Source: Planctomycetota bacterium | GTDB lineage: Bacteria > Planctomycetota > SZUA-567 > H5-PLA8 | Assembly (NCBI GenBank): GCA_045863855.1 | Contig: BTVV01000072.1 | Location: 1 to 30,592, forward strand | Length of the DNA: 30,592 bases | Reading direction: 5' to 3' | In this document: piece after piece, positions 2 through 8,876 of the stretch | How positions within the stretch are numbered: position 1 is the first letter of the stretch | Layout of the letters: each line of letters opens with the position of its first letter | The notes under the pieces: model-generated | Databases searched by the model: none | Told to the model about the DNA's origin: nothing | Seen by the model: only the letters and a program-made list of their open reading frames with translations | Made by a program: the position numbers and the translations under genes

Positions 2-193
2 CCGCGTCCGAGCAAGGAGATGCTGCTGAAGCGCTTCGATGCGGACGGCGACGGGAAACTGAGCGAAGCCGAACGCGAGGAAGCGCGGATGGCCTTTCAG
101 AAGCATCGCGGTCCGCGTGGCCCGCGTCCGGAAGGGTACGGCCCGCGGCCCGGACCCGGCGGCGAACGCCGGCCTCCGCCGGTCGACTTCTAG
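2..193 (+). CDS. 3' end of an EF-hand-containing protein (partial, runs off the window start)
   Basis: Frame 2 reads ...KEMLLKRFDADGDGKLSEAEREEARMAF...GPRPGPGGERRPPPVDF* with TAG at 191-193. It has a canonical EF-hand loop DADGDGKLSEAE and a Gly/Pro/Arg-rich tail. Not listed in the ORF track. Confidence 0.8.
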   Translation, partial: PRPSKEMLLKRFDADGDGKLSEAEREEARMAFQKHRGPRGPRPEGYGPRPGPGGERRPPPVDF

Positions 194-345: not shown

Positions 346-1074
346 ATGGCCGCCAAGAAGCAGCTCGCACTGGTCACGTTCGATATCGACGACACGCTTT
401 ACTCCACCACCGACTTCGTCCGGCTTGCGCGGGAGAATTCGCTCAAGGCCATGCTGGCCGCCGGTCTGAAAGTGGACCTCGAACGCGCGCGGATCGAACT
501 GGAGGAGGTGGTCCACGAGTTCACGTCCAACGACGAGCGCCACTTCGACCGCCTGCTGCAGCGCCTGCCTTCGGAATGCCTTGAGGACTGCAACCCCGCG
601 GTGGTGATCGCTTCCGGCGTCGCCGCGTACCACGACACGGTTTTCAACCACCTGACGCCGTACGAAGACGTGGTCGAAGGGATCCGGAGGCTGCATCAGC
701 TCAAGTACAACATGGGCGTGATCACGCAGGGCTGGACGGTGAAGCAGGCCGAGAAGCTCGTGCGGCTGCGCGTGCTGCCGTACTTCAACAAGAAGGCGCT
801 GTTCCTCAGCGATCAGCTTGGGATGAGCAAGGCGAACCCCAAGTTTTTCCAGCGTTCCGCGTCGACGCTGGGCCTGCCGAACGAGCACTGCATGCACGTC
901 GGCGACCGGCCGGACCGGGATATCGAACCGGCGAACAAAGCCGGATGGTTGACGGTGCTGAATAAGCGCAGCGGGCGCTACCACGAACGCGTGTGCGAGA
1001 CGCCGCCCGCGTACATCGTTCACAATTTCTGGGATCTGGTGGAGATTCTGGAGAAGGAATTCGAGCCGGCGTGA
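346..1074 (+). CDS. HAD-superfamily hydrolase (subfamily IA, likely phosphatase/nucleotidase)
   Basis: Motif I FDIDDTL, motif II ITQG, motif III Lys (SKANP), motif IV HVGDRPDRDI; GAGG RBS upstream. Confidence 0.9.
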   Translation: MAAKKQLALVTFDIDDTLYSTTDFVRLARENSLKAMLAAGLKVDLERARIELEEVVHEFTSNDERHFDRLLQRLPSECLEDCNPAVVIASGVAAYHDTVFNHLTPYEDVVEGIRRLHQLKYNMGVITQGWTVKQAEKLVRLRVLPYFNKKALFLSDQLGMSKANPKFFQRSASTLGLPNEHCMHVGDRPDRDIEPANKAGWLTVLNKRSGRYHERVCETPPAYIVHNFWDLVEILEKEFEPA

Positions 1075-1375: not shown

Positions 1376-2842
1376 ATGACGCAAGCGCATGAGTCTTGGG
1401 ATAAGCCCTGGAAGCGCTGGCCTGGGCAGCGTTACGCCGACGCGCCGGCGCCCAGCGCCGAAGAGCGCGAAAAGATCAAGGCTCGGGAAGCGCAGGAACG
1501 AGACCGCGCCCGCGAGGCGCGCGCGCGCGATCCGCGCCCCAACATTCTGTTCGTCTTCAGCGATCAGCAGATGGCCCAGGCGCTGAGTTGCGCCGGGAAT
1601 CGCTGGGTCAATACGCCGCACATGGATCGCCTGGCCGACGAAGGCGTGCGCTTCGCGCAGTGCTACTGCGTCGCGCCCGTCAGCGGGCCTTCGCGCGCGG
1701 CGCTCATGACCGGCCGCCTGCCGCACGAGAACGGAGTCGTCTTTAACGGCGAGTCGCCCAGGCCCGAACTGCCCAACTTCGGGCAAACCTTCCGCGCAGC
1801 CGGCTACGCGACGGTGTACAGCGGGAAGTGGCATCTCCCGAATAGTTATCCGCAAGGCGACGACGCGATCCCCGGCTTCGACCAGATCAATCGCCCCAAA
1901 GATCCCCGCAACAAGCACGGGCTCGGCGACGTGAACGATTTCGGCTTCGCGTTCGACGCCGATTTCTTTCTGCGCTACGCGGCACCCCAGATCGGCATCC
2001 CATGGCTCTACACCGTCTCGCTGCACAATCCGCACGACATCTGCCAGTTCGCCATGCGCAAACCGCGCAAGCATCGCAACCTGGATCTATATCCCCCGCT
2101 CCCCTCCAACTTCGAGATCGATCCCGAGGAAGTCGACTTCCTGCGCATCGGCCGCGAATCCAAGAGCACGCACATCGAGATGGCGCCTTCGCGCCCATGG
2201 GACGGCGATCAATGGCGCGCGTATATCCAGGCGTACTACCGCCTGGTCGAGCAGGTGGACCGCGCGCTAGGTTACATCCTCGATGCGCTCGACGAGAGCG
2301 GGCAGGCCGATAACACGCTCGTCGTTTTCGCGTCCGACCACGGCGAAGGCTGCGGCGCGCACCGCTGGCCGTGCAAGCTCGCGCTGTACGAAGAATGCGT
2401 GCGCGTGCCGCTGATTCTGCGCTATCCCGGGCGCATACCCGCGGGCCGCGTGGACGACACGAGCCTCACGTCGCTGCTCGATCTGTACCCCACCTTCTGC
2501 GATTTCGCGGGCTTCGCGCCGCCGCCGGTCCGCGGACAAAGCCTGAAGCCAGCGATCGAGGACCCGCGGGCCGCGTGGCGCGACTTCGTGCCCGCCCAGA
2601 TCGCCGCGTACCGCGGCGACGAACACCAGCGCCACGGCCGTATGCTGCGCACCGCGCGTTACAAGTACAACGCGTACGATATCGGCGCGCGGCGCGAGGA
2701 ACTCTACTTTCTGGAGGCCGATCCGGGCGAGACGCGCAACTTGGCCCGCGACGGCGCGCACGCTTCCGCATTGACCGAACACCGCGCCCGCCTGCGCGCG
2801 TGGCTCGCCGAGACCGGCGATACTTTCGCGGTGCCCGAATAA
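1376..2842 (+). CDS. Formylglycine-dependent (S1) sulfatase, Ser-type, no signal peptide
   Basis: RPNILFVFSDQ, signature SGPSRAALMTG, GKWHL, HNPH, SDHG, K..LYEE..RVPL, ELY....DPGETRNLA. Confidence 0.92.
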   Translation: MTQAHESWDKPWKRWPGQRYADAPAPSAEEREKIKAREAQERDRAREARARDPRPNILFVFSDQQMAQALSCAGNRWVNTPHMDRLADEGVRFAQCYCVAPVSGPSRAALMTGRLPHENGVVFNGESPRPELPNFGQTFRAAGYATVYSGKWHLPNSYPQGDDAIPGFDQINRPKDPRNKHGLGDVNDFGFAFDADFFLRYAAPQIGIPWLYTVSLHNPHDICQFAMRKPRKHRNLDLYPPLPSNFEIDPEEVDFLRIGRESKSTHIEMAPSRPWDGDQWRAYIQAYYRLVEQVDRALGYILDALDESGQADNTLVVFASDHGEGCGAHRWPCKLALYEECVRVPLILRYPGRIPAGRVDDTSLTSLLDLYPTFCDFAGFAPPPVRGQSLKPAIEDPRAAWRDFVPAQIAAYRGDEHQRHGRMLRTARYKYNAYDIGARREELYFLEADPGETRNLARDGAHASALTEHRARLRAWLAETGDTFAVPE

Positions 2843-2846
2843 GGTC

Positions 2847-2875
2847 TTGCGGCATTCGCGCGCTCACGTTAAAGA
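2847..2875 (+). promoter_or_regulatory. Putative promoter for the ankyrin gene leader
   Basis: TTGCGG-N17-TAAAGA; the implied start near 2882 coincides with the first hairpin of the structured leader. Confidence 0.4.
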
Positions 2876-2880
2876 AACCG

Positions 2881-3002
2881 GCGCAGCGTTCAGGACGCTC
2901 CCGGTCCGCGGGAAGGGCAGAGCCCACCTGACCGACGTACAATCGACGATCCTCCTTTCGGCCCAGCCAGCGGACACCGGGCTCCAGCGAAAGGAGGCCA
3001 AT
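2881..3002 (+). ncRNA. Candidate structured cis-regulatory leader RNA with anti-SD helix and pseudoknots
   Basis: AGCGT(2885-89)/ACGCT(2895-99) hairpin; loop TCAGG complementary to CCTGA(2927-31); GGGC/GCCC hairpin (2915-25); GTCCGC(2904-09)/GCGGAC(2970-75); CCTCCTTTCG(2951-60)/CGAAAGGAGG(2988-97) covering the SD. Confidence 0.65.
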
Positions 3003-4397
3003 ATGGCCTTGCCGTTACCGTCCCGTCCGTCCGTCGAGCAATTGAAGAAGCAGGCAAAGGAACTCCTGCGCGCGTGGCAATCGCAAGACGCCCCGGCGCT
3101 CGAACGCCTGAAGGCGTCGCATCCCGAGTATGCGTCGAGGCCGCTCGCGGACACGAATGCCTTGGCGCTCGCCGATGCGCAACTGGTCCTCGCGCGCGAA
3201 TACGGTCATTCGAGCTGGCCGAAGCTGAGGCACGCGATCGAGAACCTGAACGGGCAGTCCCAGGACGAGGTGGACGCATTCATGAGCGCCGTGCGCGCCG
3301 GGGATCACCCCCAGGTTCGCGCGAAACTCGAAGCCAACCGCGCGCTGGCCTGCGCCTTCGACCGCCACGCCTTCGACGCCAACCCCGTCACGCTGGCCGC
3401 GTCGCGCGGCGACTTGAAGCTGGTCGATCTGCTGCTCGAATTCGGCGCGGACATCAACAAGCCCAGCCGCTGGTGGGCCGGGGGCTTCACGCCGCTGCAC
3501 GGCATCTTCTGGCACGACCGCAAACAGGAACTGGCCGATGCGCTGATCGCGCGCGGTGCGGTGTTGGACATTCATTCGGCGGCGGGCTTGGGAAAACTCG
3601 AGGCCGTGCGCGCGTGGCTCGCGAAAGAACCGTCGCTCGTCAACGCGCGCGCCGGCGACGGGATGACTCCGCTGCATTACGCGGCCACACCGGAGATCGC
3701 GGCGTTCCTGCTCGAACGGGGCGCCGAGATCGACCTGCGCGACATCGACCACGGCGGCACGCCCGCGCAGCATGCGGTCAAGGACCGCCCGGACGTGGCG
3801 CGTTTTCTGATTCAGCGCGGCGCCAAACCCGACCTCTTCATGGCCGCGGCCCTGAACGATCCGGCCTTGGCCGAAAAGTTGTACGCCGCCGATCCCGGTT
3901 GCTTGAAGGCCCGAATCGGTATGGGCGAATTCAAGCTCAAGGATTCGGACGGCGGGCACATCTATTGTTACGTGGCAGGAGGGGAGACGCCGTTCCAGGC
4001 GGCCGCGGTATCCAATGCGGTTGAGATGGTCGACTGGCTGGTGCGGCACGGGGCAAACGTGAACGAGCGCGCCGGCTACGACGACGGCACGGCGCTGCAC
4101 TTCTGCGCCTGGAACGACAGTTTAGAGGGGGCGCGCAAATTGCTCGATCTGGGAGCCGAACTCGAATGCCGCAGCGGGAAGATCCACGAGAATACGCCCA
4201 TGGGCTGGGCCATCGTCAGCGGTTCGGCGCGGGTCGTGGAGCTTTTCATCGAGCGCGGCGCGAAGTTGCTGGACTACTACTTCGACGAGGTCCGCAAGGG
4301 CAAGGCGGGCGAGTTCCGGCCGTTCAAGCACGTGCCGCTGGAACGCTACACCGAGATCGAGGCGGCGCTGCTGGCGGCGAAGCAATCACGAGGTTGA
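3003..4397 (+). CDS. Ankyrin-repeat protein with a small N-terminal helical module
   Basis: True start ATG 3003 after AAGGAGG. Multiple ankyrin motifs (GFTPLH, GMTPLHYAA, GETPFQAAA, GTALHFCA, NTPMGWA; LL..GADIN). N-terminus LPSRPSVEQLKKQAKELL...LADAQLVLAREYGHSSWPKL. Confidence 0.9.
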   Translation: MALPLPSRPSVEQLKKQAKELLRAWQSQDAPALERLKASHPEYASRPLADTNALALADAQLVLAREYGHSSWPKLRHAIENLNGQSQDEVDAFMSAVRAGDHPQVRAKLEANRALACAFDRHAFDANPVTLAASRGDLKLVDLLLEFGADINKPSRWWAGGFTPLHGIFWHDRKQELADALIARGAVLDIHSAAGLGKLEAVRAWLAKEPSLVNARAGDGMTPLHYAATPEIAAFLLERGAEIDLRDIDHGGTPAQHAVKDRPDVARFLIQRGAKPDLFMAAALNDPALAEKLYAADPGCLKARIGMGEFKLKDSDGGHIYCYVAGGETPFQAAAVSNAVEMVDWLVRHGANVNERAGYDDGTALHFCAWNDSLEGARKLLDLGAELECRSGKIHENTPMGWAIVSGSARVVELFIERGAKLLDYYFDEVRKGKAGEFRPFKHVPLERYTEIEAALLAAKQSRG

Positions 4398-4412
4398 ACG
4401 CGGGACTTCAAG

Positions 4413-4447
4413 CCGCGGGCGGCCTGGAGGTCAGGGGCCGCTCGCGG
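4413..4447. other. GC-rich hairpin between convergent genes (possible terminator or mRNA-stabilising stem)
   Basis: CCGCGGGCGGCC(4413-24) pairs with GGCCGCTCGCGG(4436-47) with one G-U pair; no U-tract. Confidence 0.45.
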
Positions 4448-4476
4448 AATGCGTTTGCAGGCGACCGGAGTAATGC

Positions 4477-5202
4477 CTACTCCGCCGTCGCCGCGGGCCG
4501 CTTGCGCGAGATAATCACGACCACCGCCAGCACCACGAAGATCAACGCGCCGATGGCCAAGACGGCCGTCGTATTCAGCTTGGCCACGCTGAAGCGCGCG
4601 CGCAGAACGCCGCTACCCTTCTGGCCGCCTACGAAGTCCGCAAACGTGCCTTCCCACACCACCGTATTCTTGCGCTCCACCTTGTCCCCGTTGTGATCCA
4701 GCAGCTTGCCCGGGCCGGTCAACTTCAGCGTCACCTTGCTGTTCATCGTGTCCTTCTGCGCCTTCTCTGCCAGTTCCGCCGGCGCCGCCAGCTTGCGTTC
4801 GAAGATCCAATCGTCGTTGACTCGGCGCAGGGAGATGCCGCCGAAAACCTGCTCGACTTCCGCGTGGCCCTTCCAGGCCGAGAACTTATCGAGATGCTCC
4901 GCCCGGAAGGTCCCTTCGAACGTGGCGCGGTTGGTGCTCTCGTTGTCCTGCTTCACGAACTTTTCCAGCACCAGTCCCGCGGGCTTCTCGGCCTTCAGCT
5001 TCTCGCCGTCCTCCACCGGGTTGTCCCACGACGCCTCGGACGCCAGCTTGGTCAGGAGCCCCTGCCGGCCGCGCTCGAAGCTGTAGACCAGCGTTCCCGC
5101 GCCGTCTTCGTCGAAAGCGATCTCCTCCTGATAGGTGAAGCACCCGCATAGGCTCCACAGCGCCACGAACGCCAGCGCCGCCTGCATTCGCTTTCGAAAC
5201 AT
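4477..5202 (-). CDS. Putative lipoprotein with C-terminal transmembrane anchor (LppM-like)
   Basis: Start ATG 5202: basic N-region, hydrophobic stretch, lipobox-like LCGC; 'DEDGAGT' and 'LTGPGKLLDHNG...VVW' pattern; C-terminal TM helix followed by SRKR. Confidence 0.7.
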   Translation of the reverse strand: MFRKRMQAALAFVALWSLCGCFTYQEEIAFDEDGAGTLVYSFERGRQGLLTKLASEASWDNPVEDGEKLKAEKPAGLVLEKFVKQDNESTNRATFEGTFRAEHLDKFSAWKGHAEVEQVFGGISLRRVNDDWIFERKLAAPAELAEKAQKDTMNSKVTLKLTGPGKLLDHNGDKVERKNTVVWEGTFADFVGGQKGSGVLRARFSVAKLNTTAVLAIGALIFVVLAVVVIISRKRPAATAE

Positions 5203-5340
5203 GGGGAGGCTCCTATTCGAGGAATGGCCCCGGTTGTCTGAGGGTCGCATCGATCCGGCCGGTGCGATTGAAGCATGCAGGCGCTGCCGGGTTCGGACAT
5301 GCGCGGGCGCCGCACGAGTCTAAATATCCTAGCTTCGCGC

Positions 5341-5943: not shown

Positions 5944-6546
5944 TTACTCTTTGAGTTCGACGTTCCAGTAGGCTTCTTCGAGGAATTGCTCCCACGAAGC
6001 CTTGCAGCGCGGGCCGATCTTGAGTCCGATCCGCGTGGCCCACTTGGGCTTCACCGGCTTCTTGAGCATGCGCATACCGGCTTCTTCGGGAGTGCGGCTG
6101 CCTTTGCGCGTATTGCAGCGCACACAGGCCAGAACCACGTTTTCCCAGGTGCTCTTGCCCCCTCGGCTGCGCGGCAGGACGTGATCGATGGTCAGGTCGG
6201 TGCGGTCGAACTTCCGGGCGCAGAACTGACAGGTGTTCCCGTCGCGCTCGAAGATGTTGCGCCGGCTGAAGCGCACGTCCTGGCTGTAGAGGCTGTTGTA
6301 AGCCGTGAGTACGATGATCTCGGGGACGGCCAGCTCGAAAGTAGCCGAGCGGATCCGCTTGCCCGATTTGGCCTCGTCGCTGGCTTCGACCCAACTGTCG
6401 AAATCGTAGGTGGAATAATCCTTCGGATTGACGATGCGGGCGTAGCCGCCGTAAACCAGCGTCAGCGCGCGCCGTACGGTGGCCACATTGACGGCCACCC
6501 AACTGCGATTGAGGACCAGCACCTTCTCGGAGAGTACACCCACCAT
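5944..6546 (-). CDS. HNH endonuclease (McrA-like, N-terminal VLVLN type)
   Basis: VLVLN start, FSRRNIFERD, CQFC, TIDHVLPRSRGGKSTWENVVLACVRCNTRKG; likely start ATG 6546. Confidence 0.92.
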   Translation of the reverse strand: MVGVLSEKVLVLNRSWVAVNVATVRRALTLVYGGYARIVNPKDYSTYDFDSWVEASDEAKSGKRIRSATFELAVPEIIVLTAYNSLYSQDVRFSRRNIFERDGNTCQFCARKFDRTDLTIDHVLPRSRGGKSTWENVVLACVRCNTRKGSRTPEEAGMRMLKKPVKPKWATRIGLKIGPRCKASWEQFLEEAYWNVELKE

Positions 6547-6807
6547 AAAGTGGAACTCGCTGCGGGGCCGGGAGTTCTCGCCGCACCGGCCAGCCGGGAC
6601 CCGGAAATCATCCTGCGGGAGCACGAGTGTGCTGTCAAGCAGACCCGCCGGTTGGCATTCTAACGCAAGGCGGCCGTGCGCTCATCGAAAATCTACGCCA
6701 AGCCGTTACCCTTCCTTGGCTTCCATGAAGACGCAGAGAAGTGCGTGTAATGCGCTTGGTGCGGAAAGCGCTTCCAAGCTGATTTCCAAGCCTGTGCGGA
6801 AAATCAA

Positions 6808-6835: not shown

Positions 6836-6914
6836 ATTAGTTTTGCACAGTTTGGATTCACAGGTCGAAGTCCACGCGGTGCCCTTTGTGGCCCACCGCA
6901 GCGGAGGACCGTCT

Positions 6915-8876
6915 ATGCGCTCGCCCGGGTTTCTTTTGGCGATGCTGGTGGCCGGCTTGCTGGCCGGCAGCGGCAAGCTGCATGCGCAGCAATTGATCGA
7001 ACTGGAAGAGATTCCGGACGAGGCCAAGAAGGATACGGAGTACCTCGACCACCTCGAGAAGAAGAAGGCGATGCGCGAGCGTCTGGCCGAACAGGATGCG
7101 CAATTGCGCAGCTCGTTCGAGGACCGCGTCAAAGCGCTGGAGACCGAACGCAAGACCAAGCTCGAACCGCAGGCCACCGCCACCGTTGAAGTGGACGGCC
7201 AGACCTTGAATGTCACCGAGCCCAACAGCGCGGAGCAGGCGCTGGACCTGAAGAAGCCGGTGCGTGACCATTACGAAGTAAGCCCCGACGATTTCTCGCT
7301 GTACGAGCACGACCGCTGGTCGCTGAACAAGAGCGATTTCCAGTTCGACCGCCCGCAGTACATCGTCGCCGACGGGCAGGTCGGCCGCACGAAGCGCTGG
7401 TTCGTCTTCACCTTCTCGATCACGAACAGCAGCACCAAGGCTCGGCGGATCGCGCCGGTGATCGTGGCGGTGACCAACAACGGCGCGTTCACCCCGGCCG
7501 TGGGCGGGTTCATTCCCGAGCGTCTGGCCGCTGACAGCACGTACCACCCGCTCGCCCACGGCAAGGCCGCGCGCGACGAGATGTGGCTGAAGGAAAACGT
7601 CCTGCCTATGGAGTCGCTGAGCAACATCCACAGCCACCGCTTCGGCGCCGAAGGCTTCCAGCCGCTGGCCAATCCGCCCGAACCGATGGCGACCTTCGCG
7701 CCCGGGCAGACGCGCTGGGGCGTGGCGGTTTGGCCGAGCTTCGACGATGAACTGACCGAACTGAAGCTGGTCGTCCACGGGCTCAGCAACGCGCACCGCT
7801 ACGACCGCAAGCAGCGCCACGCGCTGGTGATCGGCTTCACGCGCAATGACGACGAGTTCCACGTCGAGCGCAGCATGCTGAAGTACGGCAGCAAGGAATT
7901 CGAGTACCTCTGGATGTGGGACCAGGACCTGACGGTTCCGCTCCCCTCCGACCCCAACGACGCGCGGATCAAGGAAAAGAAGCTCGCCACGCCTTCCGGC
8001 GGCGAACGCTTCCTCTGGACCTTCCCGTACGAGATCGCCAACAGCAGCCCGACGACGCAGAGCATCAAGGTCAAGGAAGTGGCCTTCGCGCTGCGCGGCA
8101 GCGAGAACAAGGGCGTCGAAGTGGACGTGGGCGGCCAGAAGGTTCTCGTCGAGGTCAAGGTCGTCGACGATGGCCGCAGCAGCATCTACAAGGCCCAGTT
8201 TCTGCGCGAAGCGAACCTCAGCGATCCGGCGAAGGAGATCCACCGCTTCGCGCCTTCGGCCGAGAACCAGAAGTACAAGCTGCCCGGCGGGATGGTTTTC
8301 ACGATCAAGACCGGCGAGAAGATCGAGAGCCGCGCGGTCTTCGATGCGCAGGACGTGGACTGGACCGACGTGCGCCAGCAGGTCGAAGACCAACTCAGCC
8401 TGGCCAAGGACAAGAAGGCGGCCAGCGAAGAGACCTGGAAGCAGGCGACGAAGAAGATCGCTAACGAGCACAACAAACTGGCGGAGCAGAACCCGGGCAT
8501 CCTGTACGACCCGCGCCGCAAGCTCACCGACGACCACGTGGTCCTCAAGGACGGCCGCAGCTTTACCGGACTGATCAAGGTCAACAGCGGCGAAGCGCTG
8601 CAGATCGAGACGCCTTCCGAAGGGCTGCTGAGCTTCACCAAGGAGCAGGTCGAGACGGTGACGGAAGGCGAGTTCAGCGCCGTACGCAAGCAGGTGCTGG
8701 AAGCGATTCCAGCGGCCGTCGAGGCCGCCAAGCAGAAGAAGCGCGTCACCGCCTACTTCTCCTGCGAAGCGGGCATCAGCACCGGCAGCTACCGCATCGC
8801 GCGCTGGTACCGCATCCCGGGCAAGATCGACGAGGAATGGCTGAAGGCCTGGGAAACGCTCGACGCAGGCGAGTAA
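6915..8876 (+). CDS. Large secreted hypothetical protein (coiled coil plus two beta-rich, Ig-like domains)
   Basis: ATG 6915 after GGAGG; signal peptide ending KLHA-QQ; charged coiled coil; strong host codon bias; followed by an intrinsic terminator. Confidence 0.82.
   Translation: MRSPGFLLAMLVAGLLAGSGKLHAQQLIELEEIPDEAKKDTEYLDHLEKKKAMRERLAEQDAQLRSSFEDRVKALETERKTKLEPQATATVEVDGQTLNVTEPNSAEQALDLKKPVRDHYEVSPDDFSLYEHDRWSLNKSDFQFDRPQYIVADGQVGRTKRWFVFTFSITNSSTKARRIAPVIVAVTNNGAFTPAVGGFIPERLAADSTYHPLAHGKAARDEMWLKENVLPMESLSNIHSHRFGAEGFQPLANPPEPMATFAPGQTRWGVAVWPSFDDELTELKLVVHGLSNAHRYDRKQRHALVIGFTRNDDEFHVERSMLKYGSKEFEYLWMWDQDLTVPLPSDPNDARIKEKKLATPSGGERFLWTFPYEIANSSPTTQSIKVKEVAFALRGSENKGVEVDVGGQKVLVEVKVVDDGRSSIYKAQFLREANLSDPAKEIHRFAPSAENQKYKLPGGMVFTIKTGEKIESRAVFDAQDVDWTDVRQQVEDQLSLAKDKKAASEETWKQATKKIANEHNKLAEQNPGILYDPRRKLTDDHVVLKDGRSFTGLIKVNSGEALQIETPSEGLLSFTKEQVETVTEGEFSAVRKQVLEAIPAAVEAAKQKKRVTAYFSCEAGISTGSYRIARWYRIPGKIDEEWLKAWETLDAGE

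Follow-up and report, generated by a model that had tools for sequence, protein, structure and literature searches.

In ribosomal-protein operons a protein binds the leader of its own transcript, as L1 does on the L11-L1 operon, and translational coupling acts across overlapping genes. Most of the known autoregulators that bind a leader are housekeeping proteins, which also have a second target. Pseudoknot riboswitches that occlude the Shine-Dalgarno (SD) sequence, such as ZTP/pfl and cobalamin class II, combine a 5′ junction domain, a variable linker, a 3′ hairpin and long-range pairing, and the small protein Rop/Rom binds an RNA kissing complex. Rop/Rom of ColE1 is described as a homodimeric helical protein (PMC11323272). 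COMPASS cluster #630,527 is a motif located immediately 5′ of genes for glyoxalase, flavin monooxygenase or NmrA-like proteins; in the accessible part of that preprint it is read as a leader common to enzymes, with no N-terminal domain named, and the word "ankyrin" is absent from the main text (bioRxiv 10.64898/2026.10.21.760802). Our search of the literature, which covered few subscription papers, found nothing on PF20066 (Glyoxalase_8) or the RefSeq "glyoxalase superfamily protein", and no description of the RNA-module pair presented here.

The locus lies in a 30,592-nucleotide stretch of a contig from a Planctomycetota bacterium, called the window below. Its subject is an ankyrin-repeat protein gene starting at 3003, behind a sulfatase gene that runs up to 2842. 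The features are as follows.

2847 to 2875, plus strand: weak sigma70-like promoter candidate (TTGCGG, 17 nt, TAAAGA), putative for this copy
2883 to 3005, plus strand: leader RNA, up to the start codon (model R1, 112 bits; this copy belongs to the seed)
2890 to 2931, plus strand: 5′ domain, a three-way junction (P1 2890-2894/2927-2931; P2 2901-2902/2910-2911; P3 2915-2925)
2903 to 2909, plus strand: 5′ kissing loop GGUCCGC, predicted to pair with 2970-2976
2951 to 2997, plus strand: 3′ domain (anti-SD stem P4 2951-2960/2988-2997; P5 2961-2964/2979-2982; loop strand GCGGACA 2970-2976)
2993 to 2997, plus strand: SD sequence GGAGG, inside the 3′ strand of P4
3003 to 4397, plus strand: ankyrin-protein open reading frame, 464 amino acids
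3003 to 3257, plus strand: N-terminal helical module, amino acids 1-85, with basic K15, K16, K19, R65 and K74 and a fixed W72; by profile, a distant homologue of the PF20066 N-terminus
3258 to 4397, plus strand: ankyrin-repeat cargo, amino acids 86-464 (Pfam Ank_2 E 5e-33; also Ank and Ank_3/4/5)

The remaining genes annotated in the window have no visible tie to these elements: a HAD hydrolase (346-1074, plus strand), the sulfatase (1376-2842, plus), an LppM-like protein (4477-5250, minus), an HNH protein (5944-6624, minus) and a 677-amino-acid protein without a clear Pfam family (6843-8876, plus). A tRNA gene with anticodon UUC (Glu) is located at 1166-1240 on the plus strand.

The leader RNA and the N-terminal module

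An alignment of 11 leaders revealed a three-way junction followed by a variable linker and a long P4 capped by P5. P2 comprises 2-4 bp with a 7-nt loop, to which the P5 loop is complementary, and the joining bases GC and AA are invariant. In this seed, two-sided changes were observed in 15 of 33 pairs, including 5 of 7 kissing pairs. Across 80 distinct model-aligned leaders, fitted to the nested helices and not to the kiss and including three weak rows, 92.6% of cells pair, 25 of 33 pairs show two-sided changes (P1 5/5, P3 4/4, kissing 3/7), and covariation exceeds 500 of 500 shuffles and every slid control. P2 is almost invariant; its CC/GG flips to GC/GC in one relative (L014) and, by eye, to GG/CC in another (L288). 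The single-sequence folding energy is unremarkable (z -0.9 and, with 17 of 200 shuffles as good, -1.5), and we call the leader family real because of the covariation and the R1 matches, not because of folding energy. At the Rfam 15 gathering threshold the tRNA was the sole match in the whole window; the best Rfam match of the leader had E 3.9 on the wrong strand, and 15 related leader loci returned none.

Both the pairing of the SD within P4 and the kissing contact are predictions. The predicted probability that the SD is unpaired is 0.005 in this leader and 0.21 over 77 relatives versus 0.46 in shuffled controls, being lower in 58 of the 77; opening the SD stem is predicted to cost about 7 kcal/mol, with the kissing contact left out. 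A consensus scan of 2600-4600 on the plus strand of the window yielded neither a sigma70 consensus nor a terminator. Among relatives, 58 of 76 loci carry a TTG-16..18-xAxxxT site no more than 50 nt before the RNA, compared with one in 76 for the control windows. In three of four RNA-library runs from near relatives, contigs at a depth of 3-6 cover both the leader and the open reading frame; they may include DNA carry-over, give neither start site nor strand, and carry no weight here as evidence.

The original prediction described the first ~80 residues of the protein as a separate helical unit, distinct from the ankyrin repeats, with conserved basic and aromatic positions. The first two points were borne out. 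Residues 1-85 match no Pfam family at E<=0.1, ankyrin models included, and the five ankyrin families that match the protein all lie C-terminal of them; AlphaFold2, run on a 96-row module alignment, returned an all-helical unit (mean pLDDT 82.1, pTM 0.68) with predicted helices at 11-26, 30-39, 41-44, 48-53, 56-66 and 72-83. The third point stood in part. In 92 aligned RNA-led modules, K or R occupies the equivalents of K15, K16 and K19 in 99, 83 and 100%, the R65 equivalent is kept in 93% and that of K74 in 82%, and A18, L21, A64 and W72 are 99-100% conserved. W72 is the sole truly fixed aromatic, because W25 is not conserved and the family's phenylalanine is H69 here.

Comparison of the module with PDB sequences gave no significant match, the best being designed helical proteins. 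As for a fold in common with Rop/Rom-like or HTH RNA binders, Foldseek placed no solved structure at E<=0.001 against the module model, the best VIA-align result was a weak match (Z 4.2, rmsd 4.8, 68 aligned), and neither program matched the model to a solved RNA-binding fold. BFVD returned two unnamed small viral models as weak matches (73 amino acids, probability 0.92; 57 amino acids, 0.72; both E>0.8), and in the ESM Atlas the module gave just unnamed clusters at 0.93, with recognition under its threshold.

In the predicted model, K15, K16 and K19 share one side of helix 1, and this basic surface is retained where the RNA is present. All 92 RNA-led modules carry at least two of the three basic sites, and modules borne by a second gene, with the RNA before the first, carry 2, 3 and 3. 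Four RNA-less modules (L021, L251, L289 and L277, the last with no leader found) carry 0, 0, 1 and 1. The exceptions are a frameshifted gene with all three sites and no RNA (L204) and a module with three and a weak leader match (L017). In 117 proteins with two copies of the module, compared through a profile that was made from the first copies and so favors copy 1, K or R occupies the three positions in 91, 85 and 98% of first copies versus 16, 38 and 37% of second copies, and mean net charge is +3.4 versus -1.5; the core A, L, A and W are kept in both. This retention pattern, new here, is indirect evidence that fits an RNA-binding face. A degenerate C-terminal module copy in the window's own genome (L251; G000:C8:90543-90701) lacks both leader and basic residues.

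Two-way pairing of RNA and module

Loci were collected from both sides. Starting from the protein, an RNA of at least 35 bits lies directly upstream in 78 of 80 metagenome module loci (the best 80 of 213), so that the module was found mostly with the RNA. In one exception, where the upstream DNA ends after 121 nt, the 3′ half of the RNA is visible (L166); the other is the frameshifted gene L204. All three plasmid module loci examined carry the RNA as well. The set is redundant: with the limit set below 80% similarity, 27 of the 82 strong leaders count as distinct.

Starting from the RNA, we used a pattern of the 5′ domain alone, without protein input, which found at least 119 loci; five with less than 250 nt downstream were left out. 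Among the matches listed, the module is in the first open reading frame of 107 of 114 loci, compared with 0 of 77 upstream control windows. Four of the remaining seven are without a full RNA by the model, a check that covered 100 pattern loci, these four included. In the other three, an ankyrin-like gene without the module comes first after the RNA, and its stop overlaps the start of a second gene, which bears the module. Where a full RNA has enough sequence, the module is thus in the first gene or an overlapping second gene in 110 of 110 cases among the matches listed. A model-based RNA scan of 150 genomes placed 17 of 18 matches at known module genes. The remaining one, a 32-bit leader-like match with a complementary loop strand, lies antisense to an open reading frame, with no module (L365; G104:C33:68463-68585, minus strand). 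In the window's own genome, four RNAs and four module genes occupy the same four places, and the four paralogues share the leader.

The RNA tracks the module and not the cargo, being present with ankyrin, LRR, T2SSF+T2SSE, FliG_C, glyoxalase and acyltransferase cargo. For distant modules, searched in 27 loci with filters off, the three best R1 matches (21.6, 15.5 and 13.1 bits) sit upstream of three of them, and by eye these leaders keep the layout with changed letters. Two loci hold tandem arrays: five leader RNAs and five module genes with differing cargo on one strand within about 12 kb (L282; G151:C33:22000-40000), and two leader RNAs and module genes (L283).

That the module recurs at the N-terminus of proteins with varied C-terminal domains was also upheld. 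A region search found 802 proteins with the module among 1156 candidates, and a profile search of this branch alone recovered 10,851 cluster representatives (50% identity) at E<=0.001. Among 121 scanned top representatives (121 of the 150 listed, picked by length and residue limit), cargo is ankyrin in 38, Clp_N in 17, LRR_14 in 4, and ClpX zinc finger, FliM and FliG_C in 2 each. Among 34 proteins standing in for 33 of the 38 cargo clusters at the loci plus one plasmid protein, ankyrin accounts for 17, LRR, T2SSF+T2SSE, FliG_C, glyoxalase and acyltransferase for one each, and 12 have no match. The fusions are in frame and the cargo families are common to several phyla. By Pfam, the cargo is rich in substrate-binding parts of proteases (Clp_N, ClpX zinc finger), and one further cargo presumably resembles the Lon N-domain (L295:1283-1471, minus strand). 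By record title, RNA-bearing loci fall in Acidobacteriota, Actinomycetota, Gemmatimonadota, Planctomycetota, Verrucomicrobiota, Alphaproteobacteria and others; within the window's phylum the module occurs in 26 of 301 genomes. Module-RNA pairs also occur on plasmids, and we found no phage match for modules of this branch. Looking for short relatives, we retrieved 1058 proteins between 38 and 153 amino acids long, many of them possibly fragments, so stand-alone forms are not demonstrated by this set. Collectively, the near-complete co-occurrence in both directions supports the earlier proposal of a portable RNA-plus-domain cassette, which is real, widespread and uncatalogued.

A sister leader upstream of PF20066 genes

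The original prediction needs one amendment, since the module is no orphan. The module of the ankyrin protein scores 12.5 bits (E 0.15) against Pfam PF20066 (Glyoxalase_8), under the gathering cut-off of 23.7 bits, and 5 of 14 modules match the family weakly (best E 5e-4; model positions 4-51 of 143). Aligning the module with 26 PF20066 N-termini by hhalign gave a probability of 96.3% and E 1.5e-9 over 54 columns. The C-terminal part of the 143-position model is absent, and ankyrin repeats follow the module here. Profile comparison thus puts the module into the PF20066 N-terminal domain family as one of its distant members, a link new to this work.

Alphaproteobacterial PF20066 genes have a leader of their own, with P1, CC, a six-base kissing strand, a hairpin and GGUGAA, then a linker, then P4 and P5 with the complementary strand. 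A second model, R2, places this leader directly upstream in 46 of 50 PF20066 loci, 27 of the loci being its seed. The other four are a protein that matches just the C-terminal part of PF20066 and lacks both the module and the R2 leader (L308), a locus with the leader 1.4 kb upstream (L321), and two with no R2 match within 1.5 kb (L329 and L313). L313 (G488:C79) carries a divergent module subfamily, and its leader, missed by both models, has complementary CCCUCC/GGAGGG stretches. Among non-seed R2 matches, the kiss pairs in 6 of 6 positions in 19 of 19 leaders of five sequence types, and one seed member has GUCCGU/ACGGAC, near the GUCCGC/GCGGAC of the window. Neither R1 nor R2 matches the RNAs of the other; because the models do not cross-match, the kinship of the two leaders rests on their layout and similar kissing strands, from which we infer common descent. 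COMPASS cluster #630,527, as far as its accessible description goes, may be this sister leader, which bears on novelty.

Nine of 12 plasmid and phage records have an upstream leader match at E<=0.01, and two weaker ones are, by eye, of a third type. This third type was seen about 140 nt upstream on Pseudomonas-type plasmids (L344-L348 and L354), with CCCUCC/GGAGGG and CCAUCC/GGAUGG strands. A Paracoccus plasmid follows the same operon logic as the three loci with a module-bearing second gene: behind the RNA comes a MATE gene, and the PF20066 gene overlaps it. Xanthomonas phage PhiXhv-7 encodes a 48-amino-acid stand-alone PF20066-like module among small phage genes (L355:1477-1623), for which no leader RNA was found and which could act in trans.

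Probable autoregulation, its alternatives and the known systems

Since the module co-occurs almost constantly with a leader that is predicted to hide the SD, the tag likely binds the RNA and controls its own gene. We consider it probable that the module binds its own leader directly and exerts negative translational autoregulation. Under this proposal, the module would recognize the kissing-loop fold of its leader, through a contact that may comprise helix 1 (K15, K16, K19) and the R65/W72 region, and would hold the SD stem shut, the sign of regulation being putatively negative. Promoter, leader and module would then work together as a portable feedback cassette, governing how much of the fused cargo is made. 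Where another gene comes first, control would reach the module-bearing second gene by translational coupling, and the overlapping gene pairs fit such feedback. In the least certain step, the cargo (ankyrin, LRR or Clp_N) might bind a partner and draw the protein off the RNA, turning the loop into a sensor.

A broader version, which we regard as doubtful, takes the whole superfamily of co-evolving RNA-domain pairs as a plug-in sensor, in which cargo (ankyrin, LRR, Clp_N, ClpX zinc finger, FliG/FliM and pilus ATPase parts) would bait stress-damaged or phage proteins, capture would flip translation of the operon, RNA types would be orthogonal for each subfamily, and stand-alone phage modules could jam the switch.

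The sign could also be positive. With the SD stem predicted to be closed even when no protein is bound, a plain repressor would have little to add, unless the unbound RNA is in fact less tightly closed than the prediction. It is rather unlikely, in our assessment, that the module opens the leader, as positive feedback or a bistable switch, or that the leader is the stable RNP partner of the module with a job other than repression. The co-occurrence fits such a role equally well, as does an SD predicted to be shut by default, and when the SD is forced open in the prediction the kissing strands extend to a long helix (2900-2909/2970-2981), a second state. By eye, however, this extended helix is unsupported in the P2-flipped relatives L014 and L288, and leader-binding proteins usually repress.

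We also find it unlikely that the RNA acts as a riboswitch or is recognized by some other cell factor, with the module serving in oligomerization, localization or as a degradation tag and inherited with the RNA as its neighbor. Two-domain pseudoknots with an SD-covering stem resemble ligand riboswitches, the invariance of the joining bases GC and AA suits a ligand-binding or other such RNA, and tandem and C-terminal module copies show RNA-free uses of the fold. Adjacent elements also stay linked by adjacency: since promoter, leader and N-terminus adjoin, shuffling of C-terminal cargo keeps them together even without binding. Against this, the cargo genes share no metabolism or pathway, the RNA sequence type switches with the module subfamily, and the basic residues become rarer in modules that lack the RNA. 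That promoter, RNA and module are instead a selfish or mobile unit copying itself before genes, with the RNA serving mobility and not regulation, is highly improbable: the spread across the phylum is patchy, with four copies in this genome, five in 18 kb of one contig and presence on plasmids, but at its size the module could not be a mobility enzyme of a known kind, and it has no match to one, the fusions are in frame with cargo families shared by several phyla, and flanking repeats are not evident by eye.

Direct binding of the module to its leader, the reading we favor, would give a testable function to a very large uncharacterized domain family and to the misnamed N-terminus of the "glyoxalase superfamily protein", and the work contributes at least two RNA families that Rfam lacks. 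An autoregulator built as a dedicated tag, open to any cargo, would represent a new design. For synthetic gene control, naturally orthogonal pairs of a 55-85 amino-acid protein and a 125-150 nt RNA would be useful parts.

Set beside the known systems, the window leader shares the two-domain layout of ZTP/pfl and cobalamin class II riboswitches but is tied to one protein domain and not to a pathway, with no Rfam match. With Rop/Rom the module has in common a small all-helical protein and, if it binds as proposed, a loop-loop RNA contact; the sequence and fold searches found no match between the two, and the kiss here would form within one mRNA leader. As in ribosomal-protein leaders, a conserved structured leader, supported by covariation and predicted to lie over the SD, stands with its candidate binder in the same transcription unit; here the candidate is a dedicated small domain, not known to have any other target and fused to unrelated cargo, and its leader matches none in Rfam. 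The closest relative is PF20066, which has a homologous two-part helical N-terminal domain of about 55 positions, varied cargo and a kissing-loop leader. The window's subfamily differs from it by an insert of about 20 residues and by AQxxxAREYG where PF20066 has HSxALE, and the accessory hairpin of the leader lies inside P2 in PF20066 and after P2 in the window type.
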